Shown: positions 16,750-57,187 of the stretch, in pieces | How positions within the stretch are numbered: position 1 is the first letter of the stretch | Layout: each line of letters begins with the position of its first letter | IMG/VR virus record: IMGVR_UViG_3300035698_029289 | Coordinates: 1-64,000 of that record | From: a virus | Strand: one strand, 5' to 3' | DNA: 64,000 nt | Notes under the pieces: model-generated | Told to the model about the DNA's origin: nothing | What the model saw: only the letters and a program-made list of their open reading frames with translations | Databases searched by the model: none | Translations under genes and position numbers: made by a program

Positions 16750-16860
16750 TTGACAAGACAAAATTTTTGTTGTAGTGTTTAATTAACAGTTACTTGAAGC
16801 GAAAAAGCGCTAGAGGACTGCAATATACCCGAGTGGGCGTGATTGCAGTCCTTTTTATTT
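16750..16860 (+). promoter_or_regulatory. late leader 1: promoter, conserved hairpin, overlapping terminator
   Basis: TTGACA-17-TAGTGT; CAGTTACTT-GA-AGCG-AAAAAG-CGCT-A-GAGGACTG; terminator AGGACTGCAAT/ATTGCAGTCCT-TTTTATTT. Confidence 0.8.
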
Positions 16861-16872
16861 GAATTATTAACT

Positions 16873-18942
16873 ATGGCCCAAAAGAAGAAAGAAAGAAAAC
16901 CAAAAGGTGTTATCGCCTTTTCAGAGTTAAAGAATCACTACGATTTAGCCAATGATGAGACTGACAAAAGACGGACGGGTCGAGGAAAAATCGGAACGAT
17001 TTCTTTTGACGAAGCAGACGAGTTGTTCCGTTCTTGGCTCGATGAAGATAGTTGGCCATATGATGCTCTCCTTTTTGATCCTCGCGTTTTCACTTTTATT
17101 TTTGAAAAGACTTCAAGGTTAATCTCCAACAAACTCAGAGGAAGATTGATTCCCCGAGAAGGTGGAGATATGTTGGCGGCTCATATCAATAACGAGTTAT
17201 TGAGTTTTCAATGGGATCAGGCGACTCATAGCGGCTCAATGATTTCAAAATGGGCTTTAATGGATTTGAATGCGAGGAAGTATGGCGCTGCTTTTGCTTT
17301 GTGTAAATGGCGCTATGAGCTTGCTCCTGATGAGAAAGTTTTGTTTGACGGACCGGGAATGCAAATTTTGAATAATAGAGATTGTCTCCCCGATCCGGCG
17401 GCGACAGACATTGAGTCTTGTAACTGGTTCCAAGCTAGGCAATATGTTACTTTTCAAGACCTTGAAAGGGTTAATGATAGAGCGCGAACGAAGCCTGTTT
17501 ACAAAAATCTTGATAAATTAAGAACAGTAATTAGCCAGAAAGCAGAGAAGAGCGGTGGAGATTCCCGAGACATTAACTGGACATCTCGAAATCGACAAAT
17601 TTCTGGACTTACCACAGATCCGGTTGGAAAAGACGCTGCCTTCAAGACAGTAGAGATTGTGACAGAATACCGGAAAGGTCGCTGGATCACCTTTTCGCCC
17701 CGACATGGAGTCATCCTTCGAGATATTGCCAATCCATATCACAATAATGAGATTCCGATTGTAATGCTTCGCTATTATCCGATCGATGACGACTTGTATG
17801 GCATGAGCGAAATTGAGCCAGTTAAAGGATTGCAAAAGGCAATCAATGCCATCCTCTCTCAATATGTGGATGAAATCAACCAAAAGCTTTATACGCCTAT
17901 TGCTGTCGGTCCTGGTGTTCGGCAGCACACATTGCGATGGGGAAAGGGTGCGAGGTGGATTATGAACAATCCAATGACAGACTTTCGATTGGTTGAATCT
18001 CGGTCGAATGCGGCACAATTCTTCAACAATACCTATTCTGTATTAGTGGCCGCTTTAATGAATTCTATCGGAGAAACTTCTTTGGGAGTTTCCAATATTA
18101 GCAGGTTTCAAGCAGAAAAGACTGCGACTGAGGTGAAACAGCTTGTTTCTCAAAGAAATGCACGGGATAATTTCAATCAGACATTTTTGGGAGAGGCGCT
18201 TAAAAGACAAATGATTCTGTGGCATACCATGAATCAAGTAATGATATTCAGCGATCCAGAAAAGAAATCCTATGTTATTCGGATTATTGGAAGAGACGCA
18301 ATCCGATACTTTGAAGAAAGCGGGATTGGGGCTTATGGCTTGACCGAAGAGGGAGCAAAATTGCTTCAAGAAAACACAGAAAGGACGATGGCAGAAGGAG
18401 GCGAAGAAACAGGAATTCCAGAGGACTTCATGATTCCAATGTCGCCAGTGTCAATGGGAGAAGAAGAGGAGGCTATCCCCAAGTTTTCTCTTGACATGAG
18501 CAAGCAACTTGGTACTTTAGTTATAGAGCCAGAGGATTTAAAAGGAAATTATGATTTCATTGCCGATGTGGAATCGATGGCTTTATCGGCAGGAGAACAG
18601 CAAATGCAAGGAAGAAAAGCTGCTTTCAATATGCTTCTTTCTAATCCGCTGGTAGTAGAATTTTTGGCAAAGGAAAAAGTGAGACCGAAGTTTAAAGATT
18701 TGTTTGTTGCATGGCTTGAGGATGTTGGAATGAAAGATGCTGAGAAGTTCTTTGAAAATATTCCGCCTGAGGAAATGCTTGGTCCACCGGGAATGGGACA
18801 ACCAGGAATGGGTCAGCCCGGAATGGCTCCGCAGGGAATGGGACAGCCACCAATGACAATGGGTAGTCCTATGCCAGGAGGTCCAGGCGGCGTGGCTCCA
18901 TTAGCTCCTTCTCCGAGAGCGAGAGGAGGTGGAACAGTTTAA
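16873..18942 (+). CDS. portal protein (P22-like)
   Basis: About 690 aa after terminase; NPY..NEIP...YGMSEIEPV..LQ..IN, KTATEV; PGMGQ-repeat tail. Confidence 0.9.
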   Translation: MAQKKKERKPKGVIAFSELKNHYDLANDETDKRRTGRGKIGTISFDEADELFRSWLDEDSWPYDALLFDPRVFTFIFEKTSRLISNKLRGRLIPREGGDMLAAHINNELLSFQWDQATHSGSMISKWALMDLNARKYGAAFALCKWRYELAPDEKVLFDGPGMQILNNRDCLPDPAATDIESCNWFQARQYVTFQDLERVNDRARTKPVYKNLDKLRTVISQKAEKSGGDSRDINWTSRNRQISGLTTDPVGKDAAFKTVEIVTEYRKGRWITFSPRHGVILRDIANPYHNNEIPIVMLRYYPIDDDLYGMSEIEPVKGLQKAINAILSQYVDEINQKLYTPIAVGPGVRQHTLRWGKGARWIMNNPMTDFRLVESRSNAAQFFNNTYSVLVAALMNSIGETSLGVSNISRFQAEKTATEVKQLVSQRNARDNFNQTFLGEALKRQMILWHTMNQVMIFSDPEKKSYVIRIIGRDAIRYFEESGIGAYGLTEEGAKLLQENTERTMAEGGEETGIPEDFMIPMSPVSMGEEEEAIPKFSLDMSKQLGTLVIEPEDLKGNYDFIADVESMALSAGEQQMQGRKAAFNMLLSNPLVVEFLAKEKVRPKFKDLFVAWLEDVGMKDAEKFFENIPPEEMLGPPGMGQPGMGQPGMAPQGMGQPPMTMGSPMPGGPGGVAPLAPSPRARGGGTV

Positions 18943-19277
18943 TGACAGATAAATCGCAACCAGATATTGAAAAGGGAAGAAAATTGAACAGAAAAGAAAT
19001 AGGGGAATTGAGGGAAGGGCAGGGTGTTTATGAAATGACTCAAACACCTGGGTGGCAAACCGTAAAAGGATGGTTGGAAGACAGAGCGTTTCATAGTTGG
19101 GTAGACCCACGTGAAACCAAGTCAAAAAAGGAGTGGGAATGGCAAGAACTAAATGCCTTCCACTCAGCGGATGTGTCAAGCCAGTTGTTAATAGATATTC
19201 AAAGGGCTGTTGAAAGGTCGGAGTATCTTGACAAAGTGAAAAAGGGTGAAATAAAAGAAAGGCGAATGAGAATTTAA
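18942..19277 (+). CDS. portal-adjacent head assembly protein
   Basis: TAATG coupling; MTQTPGWQTVKGWL motif. Confidence 0.7.
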   Translation: MTDKSQPDIEKGRKLNRKEIGELREGQGVYEMTQTPGWQTVKGWLEDRAFHSWVDPRETKSKKEWEWQELNAFHSADVSSQLLIDIQRAVERSEYLDKVKKGEIKERRMRI

Positions 19278-19366
19278 TGAAAGGAGGTGTAAGAATAATG
19301 GAATTTGGAAGTTTTTTAAAAGGCAAAAAGAAAAAGAAAAAAAAGAAAAAGAAGGAGGCGAAATAA

Positions 19367-19570
19367 ATGCCATATCGCAGGAGCGGAACTAAAGTCTTAC
19401 ACAAAAAAGGAGGCAAGTGGAAAGTAAAACAAACTTGCCGCTCTGAAGCTGCTGCCAAAAGAGCCATGAGCTTATTGAGAGGCTTGGAATCTGGTAGCAT
19501 TAAGCCAAGCCAAGTTGGGAAAGGAAAGTTTGCCAAAAAAAGGAAAACTAGCCGGAAGAGAAAGAAATAA
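19367..19570 (+). CDS. small basic protein
   Basis: GGAGG RBS; Lys/Arg-rich. Confidence 0.7.
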   Translation: MPYRRSGTKVLHKKGGKWKVKQTCRSEAAAKRAMSLLRGLESGSIKPSQVGKGKFAKKRKTSRKRKK

Positions 19571-19836
19571 TGCCTAAAAAATTGCCTGATTTGCCGGGTT
19601 CGGATGAAAGCACTTTAAAAACTAACAGAATGGATTCTTTCTACGAGAAGAAGCCAAGTGATATTTGGAAAGGATATGTGGAGAACATAAAATTGAAAGG
19701 GCGAAAGAAATGTTCTCATAAATTTAGACATATTCAAAGAGGAATAGAATGCGAAAAATGTCACATCGGTTTTGTAGGAGAAGGATTGAGGATTAAAAAC
19801 GGGCACATTTTCTTCGGTAATCAAAGATTTCTTTGA
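19570..19836 (+). CDS. Zn-binding hypothetical protein
   Basis: CSH...CEKC; TAATG coupling. Confidence 0.65.
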   Translation: MPKKLPDLPGSDESTLKTNRMDSFYEKKPSDIWKGYVENIKLKGRKKCSHKFRHIQRGIECEKCHIGFVGEGLRIKNGHIFFGNQRFL

Positions 19837-19954
19837 TTGTCGAAATTAGTGTACCTTTAAAAATAAATTAGAGGGAATATTTTATCATTCACCTAAGCGG
19901 TAATGCTTGCCGCCTATAACCATTATTAAATAGAGCATAAGAAAGGAGGTGAAA

Positions 19955-20923
19955 ATGACAATAAATACAGGGCTTAAAAGACCCCCTGAGAAGGTAGAAC
20001 CTCAGGCTGGAGCAAAGCCTACTCCAGAGAAAAAAGAACCTGTTCCTCAGGTTAAGGAGGTTGAAACCGAAACCCAACCAAAACCAGGAACAGAGGGGGA
20101 GTTGCCAGGAGGCGCTTCGGAGAGGACCCGAGAGCAATTTGACAAGCTCAAAAGTAGCAATCAAAGACTGCTCGAGGCAAACAAACTTCTCCAAGGAGAA
20201 ATAGCTAGAAGGGTTCAAAGTGAACAAACTTTTGCCCCGATTCAGCAAATTCCAGGAGTGCCACAAGCGCCGACACAGGCGCCATTGCAAACTCCAACTC
20301 AACCAGCTCAAGTTCCTGCGCCCGATGTTGAGCAATTCGTCGCTGTAGATCCTATTACTGGGGAGCGGTATCTTAATGAACCTAAACTCGGTCAGGCAAT
20401 CGCCGACGCAAATGCTCGAGCAAAGAGGGCAGAAAAGTCAGTTCAGAACTATATTTTGCAACAGAGATCGATTGAGGAAGAGCAACAGACGCGAGAAGCG
20501 TTTACTGCTCACCCCGAGCTTAATCCGAAGTCAAAAAAGTTCGAGAAAGGACTGCATACAAGAACACGAGCGCTTCTCTTGGATTCGATGATGAATCCAA
20601 GTGACTATGACAATCATTCTTTGAGTTTCAAAGAAGCAGGAGATTTAGCAAAGAAGCAATCAGCAAAAGATGCTAAAGAACTGACAAAGAAAGTCGATGA
20701 AGAAAGTCAAAAAGCACTTGAAGCCAAAGAGCAAGCTAGTCTAGCGGTAGAGGGGAAACCGGGAACACCGTCCCCCTCACAAGAACCATCTGAGGAGCTT
20801 GCTAACTTAGCGAAGAAAACCCGTGAGGGAGATATTTGGGCATTAGCTCGAAGATTGCAAAATACTCCACACACTGGAACACCAACTTCTTCGACAGAAG
20901 AAGGAACCGAAGAGAAGAAATAG
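19955..20923 (+). CDS. capsid scaffolding protein
   Basis: Pro/Glu-rich coiled coil directly upstream of capsid; RBS AAAGGAGGTGA. Confidence 0.8.
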   Translation: MTINTGLKRPPEKVEPQAGAKPTPEKKEPVPQVKEVETETQPKPGTEGELPGGASERTREQFDKLKSSNQRLLEANKLLQGEIARRVQSEQTFAPIQQIPGVPQAPTQAPLQTPTQPAQVPAPDVEQFVAVDPITGERYLNEPKLGQAIADANARAKRAEKSVQNYILQQRSIEEEQQTREAFTAHPELNPKSKKFEKGLHTRTRALLLDSMMNPSDYDNHSLSFKEAGDLAKKQSAKDAKELTKKVDEESQKALEAKEQASLAVEGKPGTPSPSQEPSEELANLAKKTREGDIWALARRLQNTPHTGTPTSSTEEGTEEKK

Positions 20924-21000
20924 TGCGAGAGAGTTGTGCCTCCCGTGCTATGACCGGGAGGTCAATTATCCTGCACAAGAAAGGAGTGTGAAAAAATTAT

Positions 21001-21909
21001 ATGGCGTGGGGATTAATTACATATCAAGATGCCGCGCGTAGAGAAGATCTATTGGATGTTATCGGAGATGTATCTCCTGATGAGACTCCACTTTTGACTC
21101 TTTTCGGCACAAGCACGGCAAAAGGAACTCTGCACGAATGGCTGGCATACTCAGTCTCAAGACCAACTTCGGTATCTGCCGATGTTGAAGGAGCTGATAC
21201 CACATTCGGAGATTTGACTCAACCCAACAGAGTAGTCAATGTTACCCAAATTATTAAAGAACCGGTTCAAGTTTCTCGAACCGAGCGACGGGTTAATGTG
21301 GCTGCAATGGGAGATCCGTATGCTTTCCAAAAAGCAGAAGCACTTCGTCGTCTAAAAATGAATATGGAGTATGCTTTACTGAATGCTGCGAAAGCCTCTG
21401 GATCGTCTGGTTTGGCTCGTCAAATGAATGGAATCGATGCTTTCATCACAACTACTGTTACTGCTCGAAACTCAGGAACTTCGTTTTCTGAAACTGAGCT
21501 AGAAGCTATGGTTTCTGATGCCTGGACAACAGTCGATCCCGACAAGGTATTTGACATGCTTCTTTGTACTTTCAAAATCAAGCAGAAAATTGCCGGGTTC
21601 TCTGGAAACTCTACTAGATATATTGATGCAACTGAACGAAGACTTGTTAAAGACGTGTTGGTTTATGATTCCGCTGGTGGATCTCACAGAATCTTTGCAC
21701 ACAAAGATGTGAGGAACTCAGCAGGTTCAACAACTATCTTGGGCCTACGAGAAGATTTGTACAAGACTGCGTATCTCGACAAACCAATGTTTGAAGAACT
21801 TGCTAAAACAGGTGATGCGGACAAGGGTCACTGGGTAACAGAATTTACGCTTGAGTCTATAGCAGAGAAGGCTAGTTTGAAGCGAACAGGGTATAATCAA
21901 AACGGGTAG
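21001..21909 (+). CDS. major capsid protein (SU10/DUF5309-like)
   Basis: REDLLDVI..VSP.ETP, HEW, NVTQII...VQVS.T, RQMNGI, LAKTGDADK....TEFTLE. Confidence 0.92.
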   Translation: MAWGLITYQDAARREDLLDVIGDVSPDETPLLTLFGTSTAKGTLHEWLAYSVSRPTSVSADVEGADTTFGDLTQPNRVVNVTQIIKEPVQVSRTERRVNVAAMGDPYAFQKAEALRRLKMNMEYALLNAAKASGSSGLARQMNGIDAFITTTVTARNSGTSFSETELEAMVSDAWTTVDPDKVFDMLLCTFKIKQKIAGFSGNSTRYIDATERRLVKDVLVYDSAGGSHRIFAHKDVRNSAGSTTILGLREDLYKTAYLDKPMFEELAKTGDADKGHWVTEFTLESIAEKASLKRTGYNQNG

Positions 21910-21961
21910 TAATACCCGAATGGTTGATATTTTATCCTGGTTTTGGTAGTATGAGAATACT

Positions 21962-22381
21962 ATGAAAACCAAAAGTTGCACTTTTAAAGCTTGTAATAGA
22001 AAACATTATGCCAAAGGTTATTGCCGAAAGCATTACCGACAGCGTATTGGTGAATCTGCCACTAGATGGCAAGTAATTAAATCTGATCCTGTTCTTTATG
22101 AACATTGGAGAGAACTCCAAAGAAAATGGAGCAGAAACCATAAAAGGGATCATCGGAAACATTCTGATAAAATCTACTTTGGTGGTAACAGAGAAATTGC
22201 GATTCAGCGAGACAATGAAAAGTGTGTTCGATGTGGAATGACACGGGAGGAACATCTTGCCAAATGGAAGAAAGACCTTCATGTTAATCACAAAGACCAC
22301 ACTAAAAGGAATGATTTGGATAATCTTGAAACATTATGTCTTCCTTGTCATGCTTCTAAAAGTCACTATAGTAAGAGATAA
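21962..22381 (+). CDS. HNH endonuclease
   Basis: RDNEKCVRCG...LHVNHKD...NDLDNLETLCLPCH; own promoter TTGATA(21924)-17-TAGTAT. Confidence 0.9.
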   Translation: MKTKSCTFKACNRKHYAKGYCRKHYRQRIGESATRWQVIKSDPVLYEHWRELQRKWSRNHKRDHRKHSDKIYFGGNREIAIQRDNEKCVRCGMTREEHLAKWKKDLHVNHKDHTKRNDLDNLETLCLPCHASKSHYSKR

Positions 22382-22529
22382 AATTACCTTGGTTTAAGTT
22401 ACAACCAGAACGGTTAAGGTGTAACATAGGCTTAGAGGGAGACAAAAAACATGCGGACATTTACCGCATTACCCTTGAATAAAATAAATGCGCACTCTAT
22501 GAACTGCCAAAGTTTGCATAGAGTACAAA

Positions 22530-23316: not shown

Positions 23317-25860
23317 ATGAAAAAACTTGGGGTTACGAAATTGATGACTAAACAAAATAGCGGGCCCAAAATCGCCCTCAACATGATCTTGTCGGAGAAC
23401 GAACCCATAGACATGGTTAAAAGGGCAATTGATAGCGTTCGACGCTATGTTGATGGAATTTACATAACCGTCACTTATAAAAAGAAAAAGCCTAAAAAAA
23501 CTCCTCTTTTGAAACTCCTTCGTGATTACAAAGTTAAAGTGAGTTTATTCAAGTGGGTTTATGATTTTTCCGAAGCAAGAAATTTCGCCATGGTTCAAGT
23601 TCCTCGGGACTATTTTTATCTTTTTTGGATTGACGCTGATGACGTTGTTCAGGAAGCAGAACATCTTCCTCGGATTGTTCGGGAATCATATTTGATGGAT
23701 GCTTCTGCGGTTTTTTTCGACTATTGGTATAAAGTTGATTTGGATGAGCAAGGGAAGGTGAGAGAAGTGGTTATTGAGCATAAAAGAGAAAGGCTTATCA
23801 AGACTGATGGAACATACAAATGGATCGGCAAGCTTCACGAGACACTTATTCCTCAAAAAAAAGAGAATGTTAAACAGGTTTTCAGGAAGGAATGTATTAT
23901 CGTTCACCTTAATACCGAAGAGCGAGAAAATAAAAATCTTGAGCGCAATATCAAAATTCTCGAAGAGGCTGCTCGGGAAGAAAAACATAAAGATCCCCGG
24001 ACGCTTCTTTATCTTGCAAAAGCCTATTTTGACAAAGGGAAATTAAGGGATGTTAAAAATCGTAAATTATGGTTTGATATGACTAGGGCACTTTTGTATG
24101 AATATATTGAGGGAACAGGCAAGCCAGGGCAAGAAGGTTATCAGGAAGGTTCTGGATGGAATCAAGAAAGGGCAGTCGCTTGGGGTTATCTTTCTGATAT
24201 GCACCGCCTTGAAGGACGATTGAATGCTGCCATTAAAACGATTAACAATGCTATCGTTGAGGACCCAACTTTCCCTAAATATTATTTGGATTTAGCAATG
24301 ACTTGGACTTTAAAACAGAAATGGGAGAAGGCTGAACATTGGTTGAGAGTAGCACTTCATACCCCAATGCCTAAAACTACTCAAATCCTTAATCCCCGAG
24401 ATATGAAAGCGCAGGCGTTAGAGATTGATTACAACATTGCCAGGGCGAAACAAGATTTGAATAGAAGCGTTAAGGCTGCGGAAAAACTGGTAGAAATCTT
24501 GCCCAATGTTAAGGGGATAAGAGAGCGTCTTGAGGAAGCAAAAGTTCTTAAAGCAACCAATCAAGCGGCCCAGTCTGTTATCTATTTGGCAAAGTATCTT
24601 GAGGCATCAAAAGAACCCCAAAAAATTATTCCTCTTATTCAGGCTATCCCTGCGACAATACAAGGAGAAGAAATTATATCTCAAATGAGACATCGATACT
24701 TGCCATCTCGGATTTGGGATAAAGATGAAATTGCCATTTTGTGTGGACCTGGATTTGAGAAGTGGTCTCCGAAGAACATTAAACAAGGCTTGGGTGGATC
24801 TGAATCGGCAGTTATTTACCTTAGTCGAGAACTGAAAAAGCTGGGTTACAAGATTACCGTTTTTGGAGATCCTCAGGGTGATGCGGGAGACTATGGCGGA
24901 GTTCAATTCCGACCATGGCATGAGATTAATATTAAAGATTCTTTTAACATTTTGGTTTTGTGGCGAGCCCTTGGTTTTGCGGACAACAATTTCTCGGCGA
25001 ATCAAACTTATTTATGGATGCACGATGTCCCCAATAATGCTGATTTCATAAAAGAAAGGTTGGCAAAGATTGATAAAATTATTCCTCTGTCTCAGTATCA
25101 TAAATCTCTATTTAGAATGCAGGAAGACGGAGATTTTGTAGAAATTCCCGATGAAAAGTTCTGGGTTTCTACCAATGGTATTGTTCCTGTGAAAATTAAC
25201 AAAAAGTGGAAGCGTGATCTTTATAGGTGTATTTGGACTTCTAGCTATGATCGAGGACTGGTTTATCTTTTAAATATTTGGTCTGATGTGAAAAAGGCAG
25301 TACCAAAGGCGAATCTTCACATTTATTATGGGTGGAATTTATATGACCGCCTTCATGCAGAGAATCCTGCCAGAATAGAGTGGAAAGCAAAAGTTTCCAA
25401 AATGATGCAACAACCAGGAATCGTTCATCATGGAAGGGTTGGACACAAAGAGTTGAATAGGGCTTATGCAGGATCAGCCATTTTTTCATACCCGACTGAT
25501 TTCCAGGAAATAAATTGTATAAGTGCTATGTCTGCACAGGCCTATGGAGCGATTCCAGTTTGCACAAACTATGCAGCTCTGAAAGAAACTGTTCAACATG
25601 GAATTAAGGTGGACGTAGATATTACTACGAAAACAGACCAAAAAGCATACACAAAGGAATTAATTTCTCTTTTGAAGAACACAAAAAAACAGGAAGAAAT
25701 AAGAAAGCCGATGATGGAATGGGCACAAAAATTCTTCCTATGGAAGAATACGGCCGCAAGTTGGAATCGTCAATTCCGGAAGAAAACTAAGTCCATAAAA
25801 GGAAAAAAACTTTTAAGAAAAGGGGGTGAAAACAATGCAGGACACAACAAAAAGGCCTAA
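23317..25860 (+). CDS. GT2-TPR-GT4 multidomain glycosyltransferase
   Basis: DFSEARN, WIDADD, HE (GT-A); TPR helices; GGSE, TSSYDRGL, EINCISAMSAQA (GT-B); start may be ATG 23344. Confidence 0.9.
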   Translation: MKKLGVTKLMTKQNSGPKIALNMILSENEPIDMVKRAIDSVRRYVDGIYITVTYKKKKPKKTPLLKLLRDYKVKVSLFKWVYDFSEARNFAMVQVPRDYFYLFWIDADDVVQEAEHLPRIVRESYLMDASAVFFDYWYKVDLDEQGKVREVVIEHKRERLIKTDGTYKWIGKLHETLIPQKKENVKQVFRKECIIVHLNTEERENKNLERNIKILEEAAREEKHKDPRTLLYLAKAYFDKGKLRDVKNRKLWFDMTRALLYEYIEGTGKPGQEGYQEGSGWNQERAVAWGYLSDMHRLEGRLNAAIKTINNAIVEDPTFPKYYLDLAMTWTLKQKWEKAEHWLRVALHTPMPKTTQILNPRDMKAQALEIDYNIARAKQDLNRSVKAAEKLVEILPNVKGIRERLEEAKVLKATNQAAQSVIYLAKYLEASKEPQKIIPLIQAIPATIQGEEIISQMRHRYLPSRIWDKDEIAILCGPGFEKWSPKNIKQGLGGSESAVIYLSRELKKLGYKITVFGDPQGDAGDYGGVQFRPWHEINIKDSFNILVLWRALGFADNNFSANQTYLWMHDVPNNADFIKERLAKIDKIIPLSQYHKSLFRMQEDGDFVEIPDEKFWVSTNGIVPVKINKKWKRDLYRCIWTSSYDRGLVYLLNIWSDVKKAVPKANLHIYYGWNLYDRLHAENPARIEWKAKVSKMMQQPGIVHHGRVGHKELNRAYAGSAIFSYPTDFQEINCISAMSAQAYGAIPVCTNYAALKETVQHGIKVDVDITTKTDQKAYTKELISLLKNTKKQEEIRKPMMEWAQKFFLWKNTAASWNRQFRKKTKSIKGKKLLRKGGENNAGHNKKA

Positions 25861-36427: not shown

Positions 36428-36916
36428 ATGCCATTAGTGAGAATTTTGAAAGATTATGGTCCAACTGAAGGTTGGAGCGTTGGCGACATCGTTGACATTA
36501 CCAATCCGTGGACTTTGATTGATGAGGGAAAGGTTGTTTTAGTAGATGAAAAGGGTAACCCTATGGAGAGGCCTGGTCTTTTGCATTGTCCGATTTGTTC
36601 ATACAATGCTACTACTGCTCTTGATCTAGCTCAACACATTATTGATTTCCACCCTCGCAAGTCGAAGCAACCGCAAGCAATTAGGAAGGGTCTTGTCGAA
36701 AGAAAAGGGAAAATTGAAGCCAAGCCTGGTCTTCCGCCCAAGGAAGCACTGGCAAAAGTAGAAAAAGAAGGAATAGAAGAACAGATAAGTGATGAAGAAG
36801 CCACTGTACAAAAAGAGAAGGTTCGTCGACAAAGGCTTTTGAATTTGGAAAAGGCTCGAGCAGCAAAAAGAGTCATAAAAGCCAGGAAAGAAAAAAAGGA
36901 AGGAAAGAGTGCTTAA
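36428..36916 (+). CDS. hypothetical protein with small beta domain and C2H2 finger
   Basis: VRILKD...GDIVDI...LIDEG; CPIC...H...H. Confidence 0.7.
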   Translation: MPLVRILKDYGPTEGWSVGDIVDITNPWTLIDEGKVVLVDEKGNPMERPGLLHCPICSYNATTALDLAQHIIDFHPRKSKQPQAIRKGLVERKGKIEAKPGLPPKEALAKVEKEGIEEQISDEEATVQKEKVRRQRLLNLEKARAAKRVIKARKEKKEGKSA

Positions 36917-37659: not shown

Positions 37660-37760
37660 TTGACAGGATCCCTTTAATTTAGTTAGAATGATTTAATACC
37701 TCCGAAGCAGCAAATTGCTAGGGGGGAACAAGAGACAAATTTTATTTGTCTTTTTTTGTT
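37660..37760 (+). promoter_or_regulatory. late leader 2
   Basis: TTGACA-18-TAGAAT; CCTCC-GA-AGCA-GCAAAT-TGCT-A-GGGGG; terminator AGACAAAT/ATTTGTCT-TTTTTT. Confidence 0.8.
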
Positions 37761-45777: not shown

Positions 45778-45876
45778 TTGACAAAGGATAATTATCCTTA
45801 GTATAGTTAAATTACATATTCTCCGAAGCAGCAAATTGCTAGGAGAAGGCAAGCTTTATTGGCTTGCCTTTTTTGT
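45778..45876 (+). promoter_or_regulatory. late leader 3
   Basis: TTGACA-18-TATAGT; TTCTCC-GA-AGCA-GCAAAT-TGCT-A-GGAGAA; terminator AAGGCAAGC/GCTTGCCTT-TTTT. Confidence 0.82.
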
Positions 45877-46912: not shown

Positions 46913-47530
46913 ATGGCCTTGTGTAAATGCGGTTGCGGTCGTGAAACAAAAATTGTTTGTGGTAAACCAAATCGGTTTATTCATGGGCATAGTGGGAATT
47001 TTTATAAAAATGGGCACGAGTTTCAAGGAGACATAGCAAGGTCAAACTATTTCAAAAAAGGTTACACTCCTTGGAACAAAGATAAAAAAGGGGTTTTTTC
47101 TGTGGAAGCACGTAAAAAACAATCAGAAGCCGCCAAAAATCAAAAAAATAGAAATATTGAGGGATTGAAATTAGGCTGGGGATATTGGAGGGATAAACAT
47201 AACCCACATATGGTTGGAGAAAAGAATCCTAATTACAAAGGAGGCATTAGTAAAATTAAAAAGAATAGTCGTCGATTAGACATGGAAACGCTTGAGTATA
47301 AACAATGGCGAAGAGCGGTTTTTAAGAGAGATTATTGGACATGTTTGTCTTGTGGTGAGTCTAAGGGTGGAAATTTTATAGCTCACCATATTAAAAAATA
47401 TGATGACTATCCTTCTTTAAAATATAATGTTGATAATGGATTTACACTTTGTGGAAAATGTCACCTATTTACATATGGGTATGAAGAAGATTATGAAAAA
47501 TATTTTTTGGAGATATTAAAATGGCAATAA
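46913..47530 (+). CDS. HNH endonuclease (NUMOD-type N-terminus)
   Basis: CKCGCG, PWNK, WRRAVFKRDYWTC..C, AHHI, NGFTLCGKCH. Confidence 0.9.
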   Translation: MALCKCGCGRETKIVCGKPNRFIHGHSGNFYKNGHEFQGDIARSNYFKKGYTPWNKDKKGVFSVEARKKQSEAAKNQKNRNIEGLKLGWGYWRDKHNPHMVGEKNPNYKGGISKIKKNSRRLDMETLEYKQWRRAVFKRDYWTCLSCGESKGGNFIAHHIKKYDDYPSLKYNVDNGFTLCGKCHLFTYGYEEDYEKYFLEILKWQ

Positions 47531-48216: not shown

Positions 48217-48999
48217 ATGAGGGATAAGAAGGGAAAGTTCCAAAAAGGCCATGCCCCATGGAATAAGGGAAAGACTGGAGTTTATTCGGAAGAACGACTA
48301 GAGGAATTAAGCCATTGTGCCAAAACTGGAGTGACGGGAATGTTGGGGAAAAAGCATAGCGAAGGAACAAAAGAAAAAATGAGCATAGTTAAAAGAGGAA
48401 AAGTGTTTTCCGAAAAACATAAGAAAAACTTAAGCAAGGCACATAGGAAAAGAGGAACAATTCCTCCTAGGTGGTGGGAAGATCCCATTCTTGCCACTAA
48501 AACCATGGGGAAGCTAAAGAAGAAAAAAGTGGTTATTCGGTGTGGAGTTTGTGGAAAAAAGTTTAAAGTTATTCCTTCTAGGGCTAAAACGGCTAATTTC
48601 TGTTCAAAGCAATGTCATAATAAATCAATGATTGGTCGTCTTCTTACTAAAGAGTGGAAAGAAAAAATGATTAAAAATACCCTAATGGCGATGTTAAAAC
48701 GTCCCACCTCTCTTGAAAAACAAATGATTGCCCTAATCAAAAAACACAATCTTCCCTATAAATATGTTGGTGATGGGGGCTTTTTAATAGGCTATAAAAA
48801 TCCCGATTTCGTAAACATTAATGGAGAAAAGAAATTGATTGAAATTGGCAATGAATTTCATCACAAACCGCCATACACGAAGAATCGGAGGAAACACTTC
48901 GCCAAATACGGTTGGGAAAGCTATATTTTTATAGGAGATGAATTGGATGAGGGAAAAATACTAAAAATCCTAGGGAGTAAATTATGTTACAACGATTAA
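48217..48999 (+). CDS. NUMOD3 plus Vsr/DUF559-like endonuclease
   Basis: GKKHSEGTKEKMS; PTSLEK...YKYVGDG...PDF...LIEI...FHH. Confidence 0.8.
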   Translation: MRDKKGKFQKGHAPWNKGKTGVYSEERLEELSHCAKTGVTGMLGKKHSEGTKEKMSIVKRGKVFSEKHKKNLSKAHRKRGTIPPRWWEDPILATKTMGKLKKKKVVIRCGVCGKKFKVIPSRAKTANFCSKQCHNKSMIGRLLTKEWKEKMIKNTLMAMLKRPTSLEKQMIALIKKHNLPYKYVGDGGFLIGYKNPDFVNINGEKKLIEIGNEFHHKPPYTKNRRKHFAKYGWESYIFIGDELDEGKILKILGSKLCYND

Positions 49000-50922: not shown

Positions 50923-51020
50923 TTGACAAGGAAGCGAATTGTTGTTTTAATTAATTATAGAGTCTGTTAAGCGGGAAACGCTCGCAGACGACAATAGGGT
51001 CTAACCGACCCTTTTTTATT
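50923..51020 (+). promoter_or_regulatory. late leader 4
   Basis: TTGACA-17-TTTAAT with TG; GTCTGT-TA-AGCG-GGAAA-CGCT-C-GCAGAC; terminator AGGGTC/GACCCT-TTTTT. Confidence 0.75.
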
Positions 51021-51046: not shown

Positions 51047-51727
51047 ATGTCCTGGCCTAAAGGAAAACCAACATGGAATAAAGGGAAAATTGAATGGAAA
51101 AAGTGTAAAGTGTGTGGGAAGAAAATTAGAAAGTGGCGAGTTTATTGTTCGAAAGAATGTGTATCAATTGGAAGAAGTGGAGAAAATAGATGTGGATTTA
51201 AAAAAGGACATATTCCTTGGAACAAAGATATGAAAAGGAGTGAAGAATTTAAAAAGGCATGCCGAGAGAGAGCACTTAGATTAAAACAAAAACCACCCAA
51301 ATATAATAAAAGAGGAAAAAATCATTGGAATTGGAAAGGTGGTTTACCAGTTTGTGTTGAGTGTGGGAAAATAATCTCTAGGTATAGGACTCGATGTCTC
51401 AAGTGTCATCTTGGAACAAAAAGAATGACTACTTTAGAAAAGAAAGTTCAGAATGTGATTAATAAATATAAATTGCCATATAAATTTGTTGGAAATGGAG
51501 AATTTTTTATTGAAAGGAAAAATCCTGATTTCATTAATATAAATGGAGAGAAAAAAGCTATTGAAGTTTATTGGAAGCGACACAAAGATAAATTTAAAAA
51601 GGGAGGATTTGTGGGTTGGAAAAAAGAAAGAGAAACAGTTTTTTCTAAGTATGGTTGGACAATTATTTTTTTAGATGAAAATAACATGATAGAAGAAAAA
51701 ATATTAGAAGCCTTAAGAAAGGGGTGA
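51047..51727 (+). CDS. Zn-finger plus Vsr/DUF559-like endonuclease
   Basis: PWNK repeats; TTLEK...LPYKFVGNG...NPDFININGEKKAIEV; C-terminus paralogous to 48217 gene. Confidence 0.8.
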   Translation: MSWPKGKPTWNKGKIEWKKCKVCGKKIRKWRVYCSKECVSIGRSGENRCGFKKGHIPWNKDMKRSEEFKKACRERALRLKQKPPKYNKRGKNHWNWKGGLPVCVECGKIISRYRTRCLKCHLGTKRMTTLEKKVQNVINKYKLPYKFVGNGEFFIERKNPDFININGEKKAIEVYWKRHKDKFKKGGFVGWKKERETVFSKYGWTIIFLDENNMIEEKILEALRKG

Positions 51728-51732
51728 GTTGA

Positions 51733-52554
51733 ATTTCAGCAAAACTCTGGGAATCGGCAGGCGTAAACGCTTTTCAGACAACCCTTAATGGATCAATAGC
51801 AAGTGACACTACAACCATTACTCTGTCTTCAGTAACAAACTTGGTTGCCCCAAGTATTCTTGTTATTGACCGGCAAGATGGTGTTGGAAATGATACTCCA
51901 ACGAAAAGAGAATACATTTCTTTTACTGGAATTAGCGGGAATGATCTTACAGGAGTCACTCGTGGGGTAGCCAGTTCTACTGCTCAGGCCCACTCTTCCG
52001 GTGCTTTAGTTGAAGCGATCCCTTCTGCAACTCACTGGACGGATTTAGTAGATTTCTTACAGGTAGAACACTCTTCTGCTGGGAAGCATGTTCTCTCCAC
52101 GGTGACTATTGCTTATGCTGAGGTGGCAAGATTGGTTGTGACTTCTTTAGCCTCACTTGCTGTTGTAAATGTAAAAGGACAATTTGTGTGGACAAGTGCA
52201 GGAGCTCTAGTAACTTCTTTGGCAACTGCTCCTGGGGATAGTCATTTACCTTTTTTGAGAGCAAGGAAGAATTTGACTTTAAATGGTGTTTGGGCAGGTT
52301 TAAATTCTGCTCCTTCAACAGCAGCATTTCAGGCTAATATCAGTTATCGTTCAGAACCAACAGGGGCTCATACGACCCTTTTGTCAACCGCATTAACGAT
52401 TGACGTGGGCGAATATGAGTCGAGAACTGCGGCGACTCCAGTAGTTTTAGGATTGACAAGTTTAGCATCAGGGACTCTTTTGAGCCCGAGCATTGATGCT
52501 CCGGGTGATGGAGGAGACCTCACTTTGACTATAGCTGCGACAGAGCGACCATAA
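51733..52554 (+). CDS. tail/virion protein, probable ATT start
   Basis: Frame open from ATT 51733 (ISAKLWESAG...TTLNGSI) with GGGGTGA RBS; EYISFTG...LTGVTRG...AHSSGA motif. Confidence 0.75.
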   Translation: MSAKLWESAGVNAFQTTLNGSIASDTTTITLSSVTNLVAPSILVIDRQDGVGNDTPTKREYISFTGISGNDLTGVTRGVASSTAQAHSSGALVEAIPSATHWTDLVDFLQVEHSSAGKHVLSTVTIAYAEVARLVVTSLASLAVVNVKGQFVWTSAGALVTSLATAPGDSHLPFLRARKNLTLNGVWAGLNSAPSTAAFQANISYRSEPTGAHTTLLSTALTIDVGEYESRTAATPVVLGLTSLASGTLLSPSIDAPGDGGDLTLTIAATERP

Positions 52555-53132
52555 TGGCAAACATACTTATTAATTCTGATTTTGAGAATGGAAGTGGAGA
52601 CCGAACCACAGAAGGGTGGCTTGGCAATAGTTCTGCTTATGGTACTTATCTTATGGCTGCTTATGGAACTTTATCCTTTCAGGCTACCGCTTATCATGGT
52701 TCTCAGGCTATTAAACTTGATGTTGGACAAAGCTCTTGGCTTGAAGTAAGTAATGTTGATACAAATGATACTAATGCAATCAAGGCCTATTGTCCTGCGA
52801 TTACAGGAAACACAAAATATAAACTTACTGGATGGCAGAAAAGCGATGGCTTCAGCGTTGGTGTTCAAGGATTATGTGTTTATATTAGGGAATTTGATTC
52901 GGATGGAGCTGTTATTGTTAATTTGGCTACGGATGGTATGTTAGGCACTCAAGACTGGACAGAAGTAACACACACTTGGACAACTCACGCTGATGCCGCC
53001 TACATAGGAATTACCTATATAAGGGCACACGGAGATGGAGGAGCTACTGGCGATTTATATGCCGATTACTTTAGTTTGGAAGAAGTAGGAGAAGAAGAAA
53101 AAAACAACATTTATGGATATTTTAATTGCTAG
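52554..53132 (+). CDS. CBM4/9-like carbohydrate-binding virion protein
   Basis: NILINSDFE, YKLTGW.K, GTQDWTE, YADYFSL. Confidence 0.7.
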   Translation: MANILINSDFENGSGDRTTEGWLGNSSAYGTYLMAAYGTLSFQATAYHGSQAIKLDVGQSSWLEVSNVDTNDTNAIKAYCPAITGNTKYKLTGWQKSDGFSVGVQGLCVYIREFDSDGAVIVNLATDGMLGTQDWTEVTHTWTTHADAAYIGITYIRAHGDGGATGDLYADYFSLEEVGEEEKNNIYGYFNC

Positions 53133-53134
53133 AC

Positions 53135-53791
53135 ATGAGAAATAAAAACATTATACATAAATGTAAAAACTGTGGAAAGAAATTTTTCCATCGGTCGAAA
53201 GGAGCTAATAAATATTGTTCTCATAAATGTTATGTCGAACATTATTGGACAAAGGAAAGACGAGAAGCTCAAGCAATAAAAAGTAGAAAAAGAATATTAA
53301 GTAAAAATCCTATGGAAAATAAAGAAAATAGAAAAAAAGTAAGTTTGTCTAAACTAGGAAAAAAAAGAAAGCCATTTAGTAAAAAATGCAAAGAAAATAT
53401 GAGCAATGCTCATAAGGGAGAAAAGAGTTGGTTTTGGGGAAAAAAGGGAAGTCAGCATCCTGGTTGGAGAGGTGGTTTATCATCATTGAATCAATTAATT
53501 AGAAGCAATGGTTTAATGGACTCTTGGAGAAGAAAAATATTCGAAAGAGACAATTTTACTTGTCAGGAGTGTAAAGGAAATGGGCGGTTAGTAGCACATC
53601 ATATTGTTACTTTCATAACTCTCTTGCGAAAAAACCATATAACAACAGTAAAAGAGGCAGAAAAATGTGATGAACTATGGAATCTTGATAATGGTATAAC
53701 TCTATGTAAAAAGTGTCATGACCCTACGATTAAAAGAGAGAAATTATATGAAGAAAGATACAAGGAAATTATTGAAAGTTTCAATGTTTAA
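53135..53791 (+). CDS. HNH endonuclease
   Basis: WRRKIFERDNFTCQEC, AHHI, NGITLCKKCH. Confidence 0.9.
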   Translation: MRNKNIIHKCKNCGKKFFHRSKGANKYCSHKCYVEHYWTKERREAQAIKSRKRILSKNPMENKENRKKVSLSKLGKKRKPFSKKCKENMSNAHKGEKSWFWGKKGSQHPGWRGGLSSLNQLIRSNGLMDSWRRKIFERDNFTCQECKGNGRLVAHHIVTFITLLRKNHITTVKEAEKCDELWNLDNGITLCKKCHDPTIKREKLYEERYKEIIESFNV

Positions 53792-53796
53792 CTAAT

Positions 53797-53967
53797 ATGC
53801 CAGGACCAGGAAGTCGCATTTCTACTTGGAAAATTTGCCCAGAATGTGGAGAGGAATTTTTATCTTACACAAGGAAGATTTGTGAGGATTGTTATCAAAG
53901 ATTGAGATATCAAAGAAAGAAGAAAAAGTTACTTCAAAAGAAAAAAGAATTGTTGAACATAAAATGA
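53797..53967 (+). CDS. small Zn-finger protein (56 aa)
   Basis: CPECG...CEDC then basic tail. Confidence 0.6.
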   Translation: MPGPGSRISTWKICPECGEEFLSYTRKICEDCYQRLRYQRKKKKLLQKKKELLNIK

Positions 53968-54119
53968 AAGAAAAGGATTTTGTTATCAGGAAATATTGGG
54001 GTTCTTTTGGCATCAGAAGAAGTGCTAAACCAACTGTTGAATCAGCTGAACTAACTCGTGATGAAAAGAACGCCGAATGGGTGCGAAAAAAAAATAAAGA
54101 GGCGGAAAGCTGGCTTTAA
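53964..54119 (+). CDS. hypothetical protein
   Basis: ATGA overlap. Confidence 0.45.
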   Translation: MKEKDFVIRKYWGSFGIRRSAKPTVESAELTRDEKNAEWVRKKNKEAESWL

Positions 54120-54178
54120 TCAGTTTACTGGATTTTACAAAGGGCGTTGGTGGGTTAAGGGTAGACCGATGAAAAGAA

Positions 54179-54472
54179 ATGAAAGAAAGGTTGTGGAAGG
54201 CAATATCAGAAATAGACGGAGAAATCTTTTCTCTGGGAATGAAAGATGCCGAAATAATCCGCTTACCTGAAAGTGAATGGATTGAAGGAGGAGAACATGG
54301 TATTTTTGCGACAAGACATAAGTCAGATGCCGAAAAAGTTATTTACTCTGCCGAACATAGAAAGGTTTTGTCAATACCATTAAACATGAAAGTGATACCT
54401 ATTATTGGTGAGATAAAGGATGATAGAGGGAAGACAGTAGTTTGTGAAAGGATTTTAATAGAAGGTGAATAA
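54179..54472 (+). CDS. hypothetical protein
   Basis: ORF track. Confidence 0.6.
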   Translation: MKERLWKAISEIDGEIFSLGMKDAEIIRLPESEWIEGGEHGIFATRHKSDAEKVIYSAEHRKVLSIPLNMKVIPIIGEIKDDRGKTVVCERILIEGE

Positions 54473-56432
54473 AGAAATAGGATTACACTATTTAGGGGGT
54501 GACTTTAAGACAAGAACCCAAATCAGACGGAAACTTCTCTCTGAGGAGTTGACTGCTCCGCTCCAATTAACAAAACCTGCTTTAGTTAGAACCTTCGCTG
54601 AATGGCAGCCGATTATAAACAGACGGCAAAAAGAATACCAGGAACTCCTTGGAATACCAGAAACAATCCACATTGAAATCGCTACTGAAAAACCAATCCT
54701 GCTTGTCCCCATAGGGGATGTTCATGCCGAGCATCCTGAAACCAATCTTGAACAATTTGGTAAAGACATAGATTTAGCAAAATCAGTTAATGCGTATTTT
54801 ATCACTTTAGGAGATTTAACCAATAGTATCTTCTGGAAAGCAGAACCTTCCTTAATGACTGCCCAAGAGTCAACAATGTATATCAGGTCGGCCTTGAAAT
54901 ATATGGCGGAAGATGGACACCTTTTGGCTTCATGGCTTGGCGACCATGATTGTCTTGATGAGAAAACGGAAGTATATACAAAACGAGGTTGGTTAAAATG
55001 GAATGAGCTTAATGAAAAGGATAATCTTTTGACTATAAACCCCGATGGTGGGTTGTTAGAATGGCATAAATACGAAAAGAAAATTGTTGAAGATTTTGAT
55101 GGAGAGCTAATTCATATCAAGGGTAAAAATATTGACTTGTTGGGAACAGAAAACCATCGGGTGTTTTATCAAAAGCGAAGAACTGATAAATATGATTTTA
55201 TCCCCTTGGAACAGTTTGCTAGTTTAAAGTGGGCAGACCATTATGGAATTCCTAATGCTTCAACTTTTAATTTTAGTGATTATCCGATATCAGATGAACT
55301 AATTCGATTGGTGGCGTGGTTGATTACTGATGGGTGGATTCAAACAAGAAAAGGCTATGGTTATCAACGGGTATGTTATACACAAAAGGAAGAGGATGCT
55401 CATTTAATTACTGATATTTTGGATGGACTTGGTTTTAAGTATTCTGCTAAAAGAAGGATTAGAACAAGAGATAAAATTGATGGCATGAAAATTAAATCCT
55501 TAAAGCCATCTATTGATATAGGAGTTTGTTCCAAAGATTCTAAGAAAATTTTAGATTTGATTAAAGATAAAAAATCCATGCCGTCATGGGTTTATAAATT
55601 GAGTGATAGGCAGTTTGACGCTTTTCTGGATTCTTTGATTGATGGTGATGGAACTCGGCTTCCGAGAATGAAGAATTGTGCTTGTTTCTATCAAAAGAGC
55701 AAGAAATTGATTGATGAATTACAGGCTTTGTGTGCGATGCACAATATTAAAACCAACATTTACGAGTATAAAAACCGAATGGGGAATAAGCAATATCGGC
55801 TCAATATAAATTTTAGGAAAGACACTCGATTGGTTTCTCCAAAAGCGGTTAGAGAAAATTACAAGGGGAAGATTTGGGATGTTTCAATACCACCTAACAG
55901 AAACTTCTTTGTTAGAAGAAATGGCAAAGCGTATTTTACTGGTAATTCTTGGGCTTTTGACAAACACGGAAGCCATACACTTTACGCTGATTTTTGGGAG
56001 AAGTTTAACGCCCATTTACTAGACGGAGTATCTTATGTTGATATTGGACTTAATAACGGAGATACAGTCCAGAAATACGGGATAGTTGGCTCTCATCGCC
56101 ACCCTGGCCACAGTATCTACAATTCCAGCCATCAATGTTTAAGACAATGGAGAGATGAGGGAGTAGGGTCTCTTATTAGTATTTCTGCTCACAAACACAC
56201 TAAGGCCCATAATCAACAAACCCATAAACTTTATGGTGGAAAAGAGGTTGTGTTTCATTCTGTTGCCATAGGAACATATAAAGAATCAGACCGATATAGC
56301 AGAAAACACGGTTGGCCACGCAAGGGAGAAAAGACAGCTGGAGCGTTTGGAATAGTGCTTTATCCAGGCAAGGAAAAAATTCACATTTTCTGGGAATTAG
56401 AAGATGCGGTAGACGCACTAAGCAAGGCTTGA
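54465..56432 (+). CDS. calcineurin-like metallophosphoesterase with intein
   Basis: GDVH, GDL, GDHD, SH, AHKH motifs. Confidence 0.85.
   Translation: MNKEIGLHYLGGDFKTRTQIRRKLLSEELTAPLQLTKPALVRTFAEWQPIINRRQKEYQELLGIPETIHIEIATEKPILLVPIGDVHAEHPETNLEQFGKDIDLAKSVNAYFITLGDLTNSIFWKAEPSLMTAQESTMYIRSALKYMAEDGHLLASWLGDHDCLDEKTEVYTKRGWLKWNELNEKDNLLTINPDGGLLEWHKYEKKIVEDFDGELIHIKGKNIDLLGTENHRVFYQKRRTDKYDFIPLEQFASLKWADHYGIPNASTFNFSDYPISDELIRLVAWLITDGWIQTRKGYGYQRVCYTQKEEDAHLITDILDGLGFKYSAKRRIRTRDKIDGMKIKSLKPSIDIGVCSKDSKKILDLIKDKKSMPSWVYKLSDRQFDAFLDSLIDGDGTRLPRMKNCACFYQKSKKLIDELQALCAMHNIKTNIYEYKNRMGNKQYRLNINFRKDTRLVSPKAVRENYKGKIWDVSIPPNRNFFVRRNGKAYFTGNSWAFDKHGSHTLYADFWEKFNAHLLDGVSYVDIGLNNGDTVQKYGIVGSHRHPGHSIYNSSHQCLRQWRDEGVGSLISISAHKHTKAHNQQTHKLYGGKEVVFHSVAIGTYKESDRYSRKHGWPRKGEKTAGAFGIVLYPGKEKIHIFWELEDAVDALSKA
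54951..55946 (+). mobile_element. intein with LAGLIDADG endonuclease (332 aa)
   Basis: HD|CLDEKTEVYTKRGW, TENH block B, LITDGW and LIDGDG, FFVRRNGKAYFTGN|S. Confidence 0.93.
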
Positions 56433-56507
56433 AAATAAGATGTCCAGTATTTTCTTTTCTTATTGGAGAAATGGTATAATAATGAAAATGAGGACAGAAT
56501 AAATATT

Positions 56508-57026
56508 ATGCCAAAAGGAGTTTATTTTCGTACTGAAGCAACTAGAAAGAAAATAAGTGAAGCCCGTATGGGTAAAAAGCTTTCTGAAAAAACTAAACGG
56601 AAATTGAGTGAAATTCATAAACGGATTGGCACTAGGCCACTTTCTCGTAAAGGCATCATTTTGAGTGAAGAGCTTAAAAAGAAACTAAGTAAAATTCATA
56701 AAAAAATCGGAACTATGCCGCCACACCCTAAAGGAAAAGACCATCCTAACTGGAAAGGTGGCTTCTCGCTTTATCCTATTGATTGGACAGAAACCCTAAA
56801 AGAATCTATCAGACAAAGAGATAACTGTGTTTGTCAGTTATGCGGAATACATCAAGGCGAATTAAAAGGATTTCATAAGAAACTAGATGTTCACCATATT
56901 GATTATAATAAAGATAATCTAAATCCAGACAACTTGATTTCACTTTGTAAAAGTTGTCACTTGAAAACTAATTATAATCGGGAATATTGGCTTGAATATT
57001 TTCAACAAAAGGAAGTGAAAATATAA
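56508..57026 (+). CDS. NUMOD3 plus HNH endonuclease
   Basis: SEKTKRKLSE repeats; IRQRDNCVCQLC, VHHIDYNKDN..NLISLCKSCH. Confidence 0.92.
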   Translation: MPKGVYFRTEATRKKISEARMGKKLSEKTKRKLSEIHKRIGTRPLSRKGIILSEELKKKLSKIHKKIGTMPPHPKGKDHPNWKGGFSLYPIDWTETLKESIRQRDNCVCQLCGIHQGELKGFHKKLDVHHIDYNKDNLNPDNLISLCKSCHLKTNYNREYWLEYFQQKEVKI

Positions 57027-57090
57027 ATGATAAACTGGCGTGATGGAATATTGAACAGGCGATAGATTTTATGGCAATCTGATTATTCCC

Positions 57091-57187
57091 TTGACAAAGG
57101 TGGAGGCATGGTTTAATAATGTATTATATGTTCATAAGGCGGTTTAATCGCTAGTGAACAAGAAGAGCCGATAATTGGCTCTTTTTT
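57091..57187 (+). promoter_or_regulatory. late leader 5
   Basis: CCCTTGACAA, AT-rich -10 region; GTTCAT-AA-GGCGG-TTTAA-TCGCT-A-GTGAAC; terminator AGAGCCGA/TTGGCTCT-TTTTT. Confidence 0.75.

Follow-up and report, generated by a model that had tools for sequence, protein, structure and literature searches.

Conserved promoter-hairpin-terminator units ahead of virion gene blocks in an uncultured groundwater phage: a covarying RNA element with a possible role in antitermination

In this study, we analyzed the first 64 kb (hereafter the window) of the 73,979-base-pair (bp) viral contig IMGVR_UViG_3300035698_029289, which has a G+C content of 40% and an estimated completeness of 78%, and which belongs to an uncultured phage of ~95 kb from groundwater-type metagenomes. 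The window carries five units, all on the + strand, each consisting of a TTGACA promoter with its −10 box, an RNA hairpin and an intrinsic terminator, in this order, with the first ATG of a gene block behind the terminator (Table 1). These units had been proposed in an original prediction made from the sequence alone; sequence inspection and a pattern search recovered all five of them, as well as the 23 identical nucleotides (nt) common to copies 2 and 3. The −10 boxes are of the TAnnnT type and are located 17–18 nt past TTGACA. The hairpins are 27–34 nt long and begin 31–37 nt past the −35 box, i.e. ~0–7 nt past the likely transcription start, and the terminators, which are of the canonical intrinsic type, lie 10–50 nt ahead of the first ATG of the block. 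Searching the window with the pattern TTGACA-N35-50-ARGCR-N4-9-YGCTM gave five matches, all on the + strand and identical to the five units, while 0.01 matches were expected from shuffled sequences.

Upstream of the first unit, an operon extending from 11443 to 16742 comprises HNH, ParB-like, methyltransferase and terminase genes. Behind unit 1 follow the portal gene (16873) and that of the major head protein (21001), behind unit 2 a collagen-like tail fibre gene (38684), behind unit 3 a tail-like protein and a virion protein of 644 amino acids (aa), and behind unit 5 a 432-aa protein, a giant protein of 1897 aa and a CHAP hydrolase. The head, fibre, adaptor, tail and ejection functions originally predicted for these blocks hold in outline, as late or virion blocks; the specific labels could be confirmed only in part, and most of the block after unit 4 has no assignment.

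Table 1. Coordinates of the units, of the candidate partner protein and of gene junctions carrying units in relatives
Feature	Position	Strand	Details
Unit 1 promoter	16750..16778	+	−35 TTGACA 16750–16755, spacer 17 nt, −10 TAGTGT 16773–16778
Unit 1 hairpin	16787..16820	+	outer stem interrupted, bulge GA, inner stem AGCG/CGCT, 3′ bulge A; 3′ arm common to terminator
Unit 1 intrinsic terminator	16812..16856	+	long stem and U-tract; excludes hairpin outer stem; portal ATG 16873
Unit 2 promoter	37660..37689	+	−35 TTGACA, spacer 18 nt, −10 TAGAAT 37684–37689
Unit 2 hairpin	37699..37725	+	CCTCC / GA / AGCA-loop-TGCT / A / GGGGG
Unit 2 intrinsic terminator	37731..37757	+	no overlap with hairpin; ATG 37764
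Unit 3 promoter	45778..45807	+	−35 TTGACA, spacer 18 nt, −10 TATAGT 45802–45807
Unit 3 hairpin	45819..45847	+	TTCTCC / GA / AGCA-loop-TGCT / A / GGAGAA
Unit 3 intrinsic terminator	45848..45874	+	abuts hairpin directly; ATG 45911
Unit 4 promoter	50923..50951	+	−35 TTGACA, spacer 17 nt, −10 TTTAAT 50946–50951
Unit 4 hairpin	50962..50989	+	GTCTGT / TA / AGCG-loop-CGCT / C / GCAGAC
Unit 4 intrinsic terminator	50997..51017	+	7 nt past hairpin; ATG 51047
Unit 5 promoter	57091..57120	+	−35 TTGACA, spacer 17–18 nt, −10 TAATAA/AATAAT
Unit 5 hairpin	57129..57160	+	TGTTCAT / AA / GGCG-loop-CGCT / A / GTGAACA
Unit 5 intrinsic terminator	57161..57187	+	abuts hairpin; ATG 57200
Candidate partner, 96-aa protein	16452..16742	+	last gene of packaging operon; ends 7 nt before unit 1 −35
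Junction before ortholog of 47521	window unit 3, G001 29404, G002 3699(−)		ortholog mapping
Junction before ortholog of 51841	window unit 4, G001 32169		ortholog mapping
Junction before ortholog of 57724	window unit 5, G006 45011		ortholog mapping
Junction after ortholog of 36909	window unit 2, G003 23260		ortholog mapping

Folding with ViennaRNA gave for copies 2–5 an outer stem of 5–7 bp, a 2x1 internal loop and an inner stem of 4–6 bp, followed by a separate terminator hairpin with a U-tract (z −4.3 to −5.9). Copy 1 has an interrupted outer stem (CAG-TA-CTT / GAG-GA-CTG), the 3′ arm of which doubles as the 5′ arm of the terminator; in the minimum-energy fold this outer stem is open. The paired outer stem with a 2x1 loop, originally proposed for all five copies, therefore applies to copies 2–5, while copy 1 departs from it. 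A search of the whole 73,979-bp contig with a covariance model revealed no further copies.

For comparison, a related clade with 60–64% identical portal proteins was available in IMG/VR and metagenome contigs. It includes the complete relative G006 (96,884 bp with terminal repeats) and a 96,315-bp contig from Hainich groundwater; the close relatives L058 and L059–L061 also stem from Hainich groundwater assemblies (0.1-μm fraction). As complete relatives have ~96–97 kb with terminal repeats, the contig of the window is short of ~20 kb. A comparison of 22 kb of the region with the INPHARED phages gave no match at the DNA level, and in cultured phages the only match to the window portal was one of 24% identity in a Microcystis phage, so that no close cultured relative was found. 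Scans of IMG/VR with exact patterns (the shared core of units 2 and 3; the extended −35 box plus hairpin) returned chance matches only, of which L054 is a coding ATG region and L055 and L056 are unrelated.

A first alignment of 11 hairpin copies was made with MAFFT and registered by hand, and served as the basis of a covariance model (R1). In this alignment, 91.7% of the cells pair compared with 30–47% in slid controls, and double changes occur in 11 of 11 pairs. Searching both strands of 431 kb with model R1 gave 24 hits, all on the late strand, next to terminators and upstream of genes; all but perhaps one of them sit in a unit. In the resulting 24-copy alignment, pairing reaches 98.9% in the inner helix, where each of the four pairs has compensatory changes, and 83% in the outer helix, and the covariation score is 0.88 compared with 0.27 for shuffles and 0.11–0.22 for slid partners; being fitted to the model, this alignment is biased towards the structure, but the first alignment and by-eye parses of units missed by the model agree with it. 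Across the hairpin alignments, 88.9–91.7% of the cells are paired vs. 29–47% in slid controls. The covariation claimed originally from the five window copies thus holds and becomes far stronger with the relatives added. G-U pairs, which are frequent in the hairpin, would turn into C-A mismatches on the opposite strand, so that the structure belongs to the + strand RNA only. Judged by these alignments, the hairpin is a true, conserved, covarying and strand-specific RNA element. A DNA hairpin as in promoters of the N4 type was ruled out, since both the G-U pairs and the strand bias point to RNA, and an RNase III site was ruled out because 11 bp are too short.

The unpaired positions, in contrast to the freely varying stems, are nearly fixed. 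The bulge base directly 5′ of the inner stem is an A in 24 of 24 copies, the penultimate loop base is an A in 23 and another loop base in 20 of the 24, and the 3′ bulge is an A in 18 of the 24. The first inner pair is purine-pyrimidine in every copy of this alignment. Fixed unpaired bases on covarying stems are a pattern typical of ligand-binding sites and not of hairpins that are merely structural. The motif is not a family listed in Rfam 15: a cmscan of the whole window at the gathering threshold gave transfer RNAs (tRNAs) only, and at E ≤ 5 the sole hit on a unit was STnc390 with 21 bits (cut-off 50; E 4.8).

In total, ~40 units from groundwater and other environmental metagenomes were collected. 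Most relatives of the clade have a unit upstream of the portal gene, and additional units are present at other junctions, commonly two to five in a genome, with as many as four within 6 kb. The inner stems of the relatives vary widely (GGCG/CGCC, GGTA/TACC, GGTG/CACC, GAGG/CCTC, GCGG/CCGC, GATG/CATC, GACG/CGTC and others). Ortholog mapping revealed that the same gene junctions carry units in genomes with 33–64% protein identity and differing stem sequences (Table 1). Conservation of place also bears on the idea that the short RNAs are themselves the product, i.e. abundant phage small RNAs of hairpin plus terminator which titrate or recruit a host or phage protein, with the late genes being expressed by leak only. 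Strong promoters, two-hairpin RNAs of 60–75 nt, several paralogous copies and a shared motif resembling a protein-binding site would suit such a role. We nevertheless consider it highly improbable, because the units are always located directly before virion blocks, on the same strand and at conserved junctions, but never free-standing, and because 24 of 24 model hits lie upstream of genes.

To describe the relation between hairpin and terminator, 28 units (5 from the window and 23 from relatives) were folded, both freely and under constraints, over the stretch from leader to U-tract. For 18 of the 28, namely window unit 1 and 17 of the 23 units from relatives, the fold of lowest energy has a complete terminator and an open outer stem of the hairpin, and when the hairpin was enforced in these 18 units, the terminator stem ended 2–4 nt short of the U-tract. 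The 3′ arm of the hairpin and the base of the terminator have 2–4 nt or more in common, typically the CC or ACC closing the hairpin. Enforcing the hairpin costs ~1–5 kcal/mol in most overlapping units, up to 7 kcal/mol in L003 and ~11 kcal/mol in window unit 1 and L028; in the majority of the overlapping units, the calculated energy balance could thus be tipped by a bound protein. Marginal overlaps of 0–1 nt, at most 1–2 nt, with both structures folding intact, were found in units G1a, G1e and L031. In window units 2–5 as well as in units G6b and G1d, hairpin and terminator coexist, either abutting or 4–7 nt apart, and the hairpins of window units 2–5 are more stable (−11 to −12 kcal/mol alone). 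According to these predicted structures, the mechanism is not uniform across the units, with overlap in most relatives and window unit 1 and none in window units 2–5.

The terminators of window units 2–5 have stems of 7–11 bp followed by 6–7 U, and there is no space for another promoter before the ATGs of the virion genes. Since no other promoter fits there, read-through of the terminators is needed for expression of the virion genes, and since these terminators are canonical, read-through in units 2–5 needs active help, either sterically or via the polymerase. Leader-peptide attenuation was ruled out, as the leaders have no plausible open reading frame (ORF) or ribosome-binding site. 5′ hairpin stabilisers are established for Bacillus mRNAs, and the units might likewise be factor-independent attenuators or insulators, with the hairpin serving as 5′ stabiliser and built-in competitor, a fixed leak tuning the dosage of each block, and read-through from upstream being blocked. 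This is consistent with the location of the hairpin within a few nt of the 5′ end, with the 1–5 kcal/mol separating the hairpin and terminator states in many relatives, and with relatives doing without a unit at given junctions. However, neither a stabiliser nor a thermodynamic competitor needs conserved unpaired As or the purine-pyrimidine constraint, the strong terminators of window units 2–5, being without overlap, would simply shut off essential genes, and transcripts reading through from upstream would carry the same hairpin and hence not be insulated. We therefore regard factor-independent attenuation as unlikely.

Our preferred reading, to which we assign a probability of roughly 55%, is that each unit acts as an antitermination gate which depends on a factor and is based on a new RNA motif. 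Host RNA polymerase of the sigma70 type would initiate at the TTGACA promoter and make an RNA of ~60–75 nt which bears the hairpin at its 5′ end and stops at the intrinsic terminator. A trans-acting factor produced earlier in infection, most likely a phage protein, would then recognize the hairpin by its bulged A, the purine-pyrimidine first inner pair, the A-rich loop and the 3′ bulge, and the polymerase would proceed into the virion genes. In this scheme, the termination event, the factor with its identity and the timing are inferred from the sequence. The overlapping form (window unit 1 and 17 of the 23 units of relatives) may be ancestral and is the commonest, the last 2–4 nt of the hairpin forming the base of the terminator stem. 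In such units, a clamped hairpin would keep the terminator stem short of the U-tract, which would make a switch of the RAT/LicT type with termination as the default. In window units 2–5, the bound factor would have to act sterically on the abutting terminator or touch the polymerase, as N does through boxB.

Several results weigh against this reading. As window units 2–5 are without overlap, simple competition between hairpin and terminator fails for four of the five window units. In some relatives, a plain TTGACA promoter takes the place of the unit, e.g. at the portal promoters of L004, L005, L043 and L046 and at positions 36486 and 38265 of G006. Since a plain promoter can replace the unit at some of these junctions, the gate can be dispensed with at each single site, and the original prediction of one switch governing every virion gene goes too far, the complete 96.9-kb genome being among these relatives. 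Furthermore, the protein families searched for did not provide a factor. Six-frame searches of G000, G001, G002, G003 and the complete G006 gave no match to CAT_RBD (PF03123; E ≤ 1), to the NusG NGN domain as in LoaP-type proteins (PF02357), to Sigma70_r2 or to Phage_antitermQ (PF06530; E ≤ 1), with the 82-type and 21-type Q families outside the search; controls gave matches in the CAT_RBD search. Pfam scans of the early, packaging-operon and end-of-contig genes recognized no regulator either. Since the genome of the window is only ~78% complete, the factor could lie in the missing part.

A lead to the factor comes from the gene directly upstream of unit 1, which encodes a 96-aa protein (Table 1). 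It is kept directly upstream of the portal gene in all examined relatives with a readable junction, including those with an ungated portal promoter, and belongs to a family of ~170 clusters of proteins with 90–110 aa. The structure, predicted with confidence, consists of two long helices and a three-stranded sheet (predicted local distance difference test, pLDDT, 86.6), and the invariant second helix, which is rich in Arg and Asn, could contact nucleic acid. In the family, the signal for DUF2292 is weak (8 of 15 members, best E 0.023); the window copy has no Pfam match even at E 10, and a literature search found no account of a DUF2292 function. Comparison of the fold by Foldseek with PDB and BFVD gave nothing at E ≤ 0.001, VIA-align wide reached a best Z of 4.5, and the ESM Atlas gave no usable hit. 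The position of the gene mirrors that of lambda Q beside pR′, and the 96-aa protein is a putative partner of the hairpin.

In the contig, further strong TTGACA promoters at 11407 (+), 11381 (−), 40641 (+), 70113 (−), 9834 (−), 9286 (−) and 4256 (−) run straight into genes without hairpin or terminator, and early promoters of the same genome are free of both. The late promoters have host-type TTGACA/TAnnnT boxes of the sigma70 type. A TAG(T/C) box is located 9–11 nt past the −35 in 30 of the 41 unit promoters (window and loci L001–L072) vs. 13% of the other TTGACA sites; in the window, it is merged with the −10 box in units 1–3 and absent in units 4 and 5. Also, an ATA is kept immediately 5′ of the hairpin in unit promoters, often TAnnnT-like and at the transcript start. 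Box and ATA could be ordinary promoter and start-site context, the promoter consensus of the clade, or a DNA signal for a regulator such as a Q-like factor.

The last possibility corresponds to processive antitermination loaded at the promoter, in which a DNA-binding phage factor modifies the polymerase there and the hairpin is accessory, e.g. a pause or loading signal. A promoter, a short leader and a terminator before late genes are the hallmark of lambdoid pR′-tR′, and this layout, the TAG(T/C) box together with the ATA at the transcript start, and the 96-aa protein, encoded at the position typical of Q immediately before the first unit, all argue for it, as does the need for a mechanism independent of competition in window units 2–5. 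On the other hand, the five genomes are without a match to Phage_antitermQ, Q systems do not need a covarying hairpin with fixed unpaired bases, the recurrent 2–4 nt overlap of hairpin and terminator in relatives is left unexplained, and the box is missing or shifted in window units 4 and 5. A Q-like mechanism thus appears rather unlikely.

Compared with known systems, the hairpin-dependent gate shares single features with several of them. As in the BglG/SacY/LicT-RAT systems of Bacillus and E. coli, the overlapping units (window unit 1 and 17 of the 23 from relatives) have a short leader hairpin with an asymmetric loop that shares a few nt with the 5′ arm of the terminator. The RAT (ribonucleic antiterminator) consensus has ~29 nt and two asymmetric internal loops. 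The phage hairpin, however, has one internal loop instead of two quasi-symmetric ones and by eye no sequence likeness to RAT, and the phage has at least five sites per genome, no CAT_RBD in the five genomes and no overlap in window units 2–5. With the lambda N/nut system it shares a small hairpin with an A-rich loop near the 5′ end of the transcript, several sites per genome and the location upstream of terminators, and an N-like mode would also cover the non-overlapping units. In contrast to nut, alignments of the 28 units show no conserved boxA-like single-stranded element, the hairpin has an additional outer stem as well as its conserved 2x1 internal loop, the terminal loop is not GNRA-like, and the units gate late instead of early genes, each with its own promoter and terminator. 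The lambda system further comprises the arginine-rich N protein; no N-like protein was recognized among the early genes, although profile searches cannot find such proteins.

The lambdoid Q system, with pR′, the Q-binding element, a pause and tR′, resembles the units in its strong constitutive promoter, its short terminated leader, the late genes behind it, the small gene immediately upstream and a box in the promoter spacer; its mechanism has been described (PMC9388147; bioRxiv 10.1101/651190). In the phage clade there are five to eight gates instead of one, the conserved core is a covarying RNA hairpin, and there is no match to the Q family searched for. In conAn of Gram-positive conjugative plasmids, the closest bipartite system in a mobile element, an RNA element past the promoter and a small protein allow terminator read-through in a long operon, and conAn2 is reported to be a large RNA element which occurs once per operon and can antiterminate by itself (PMC8191782). 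The units differ by a hairpin of ~30 nt that is repeated at each block. The hairpin itself is similar in architecture to the coat-protein operators of PP7 and MS2, which have a lower stem, a bulged A on the 5′ side, an upper stem of 2–4 bp and a loop with conserved As. In PP7 and MS2, a protein dimer reads the two adenines. These are translational operators of RNA phages without a terminator, whereas the motif of the phage units has a second bulge on the 3′ side. By analogy, the logic of the overlapping units is that of site-specific antiterminators such as BglG/LicT-RAT, and that of the others is closer to N/boxB or Q.

A more specific version of the antitermination gate would assign it to a new family of phage antiterminators, possibly the 96-aa protein with its helical hairpin and DUF2292-like features. 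Such a protein would read two adenines of the bulged hairpin that each late transcript carries at its 5′ end and suppress the adjacent terminator at at least five sites per genome, whether or not hairpin and terminator compete, and would be distinct from CAT/RAT, N/nut and Q. We put this forward as a tentative possibility only.

Further aspects of the gene content were also noted. The large terminase consists of two ORFs, 14939–15814 (ATPase part) and 15805–16452 (nuclease part), which overlap by 10 nt; the split is kept in G001, G002, G003 and G006, with an HNH gene between the halves in G001, and could reflect two subunits or a programmed frameshift. Several HNH/homing endonuclease genes are dotted through the virion gene region (46913–47530, 48217–48999, 11443–11949 and 8745–9251), and the gene directly behind unit 4 (51047–51727) probably also encodes one. 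Glycosyltransferase, epimerase and methyltransferase genes lie amid the virion genes from 23317 to 45533, e.g. at 23317 (847 aa) and 43695 (612 aa), and another epimerase gene is located at 6102. Behind unit 5, from 59032 to contig position 64725 (L027:32-5725), the 1897-aa protein, which has no Pfam or PHROG match, is followed by the CHAP-domain protein. On the − strand, 12 tRNA genes (His, Phe, Glu, Asp, Ala, Ser, Tyr, Gly, two Gln, Trp and Asn) extend from 7133 to 9787, interleaved with small ORFs and an HNH gene, and the early region encodes an ARPP-1 domain protein at 9831–10796 (PF20208, E 4e-29). Past the end of the window, contig positions 66785–73967 (L027) encode, again on the − strand, a DUF2201 metallopeptidase/VWA protein, an AAA ATPase and a ThiF/E1-like protein.

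To our knowledge, few antitermination systems have been elucidated, and the timing of virion gene expression in large uncultured lytic phages is mostly unknown. The units described here provide a compact RNA element with strong covariation support, a testable logic and many natural sequence variants (~40 units). If confirmed, the antitermination gate would add a novel module of RNA-protein recognition and show a new mode of placing several operons under one switch. In synthetic biology, a hairpin of ~30 nt with its terminator could find use as a small orthogonal gate, and the motif of the units can be searched for to locate late operons in phage contigs that lack annotation.

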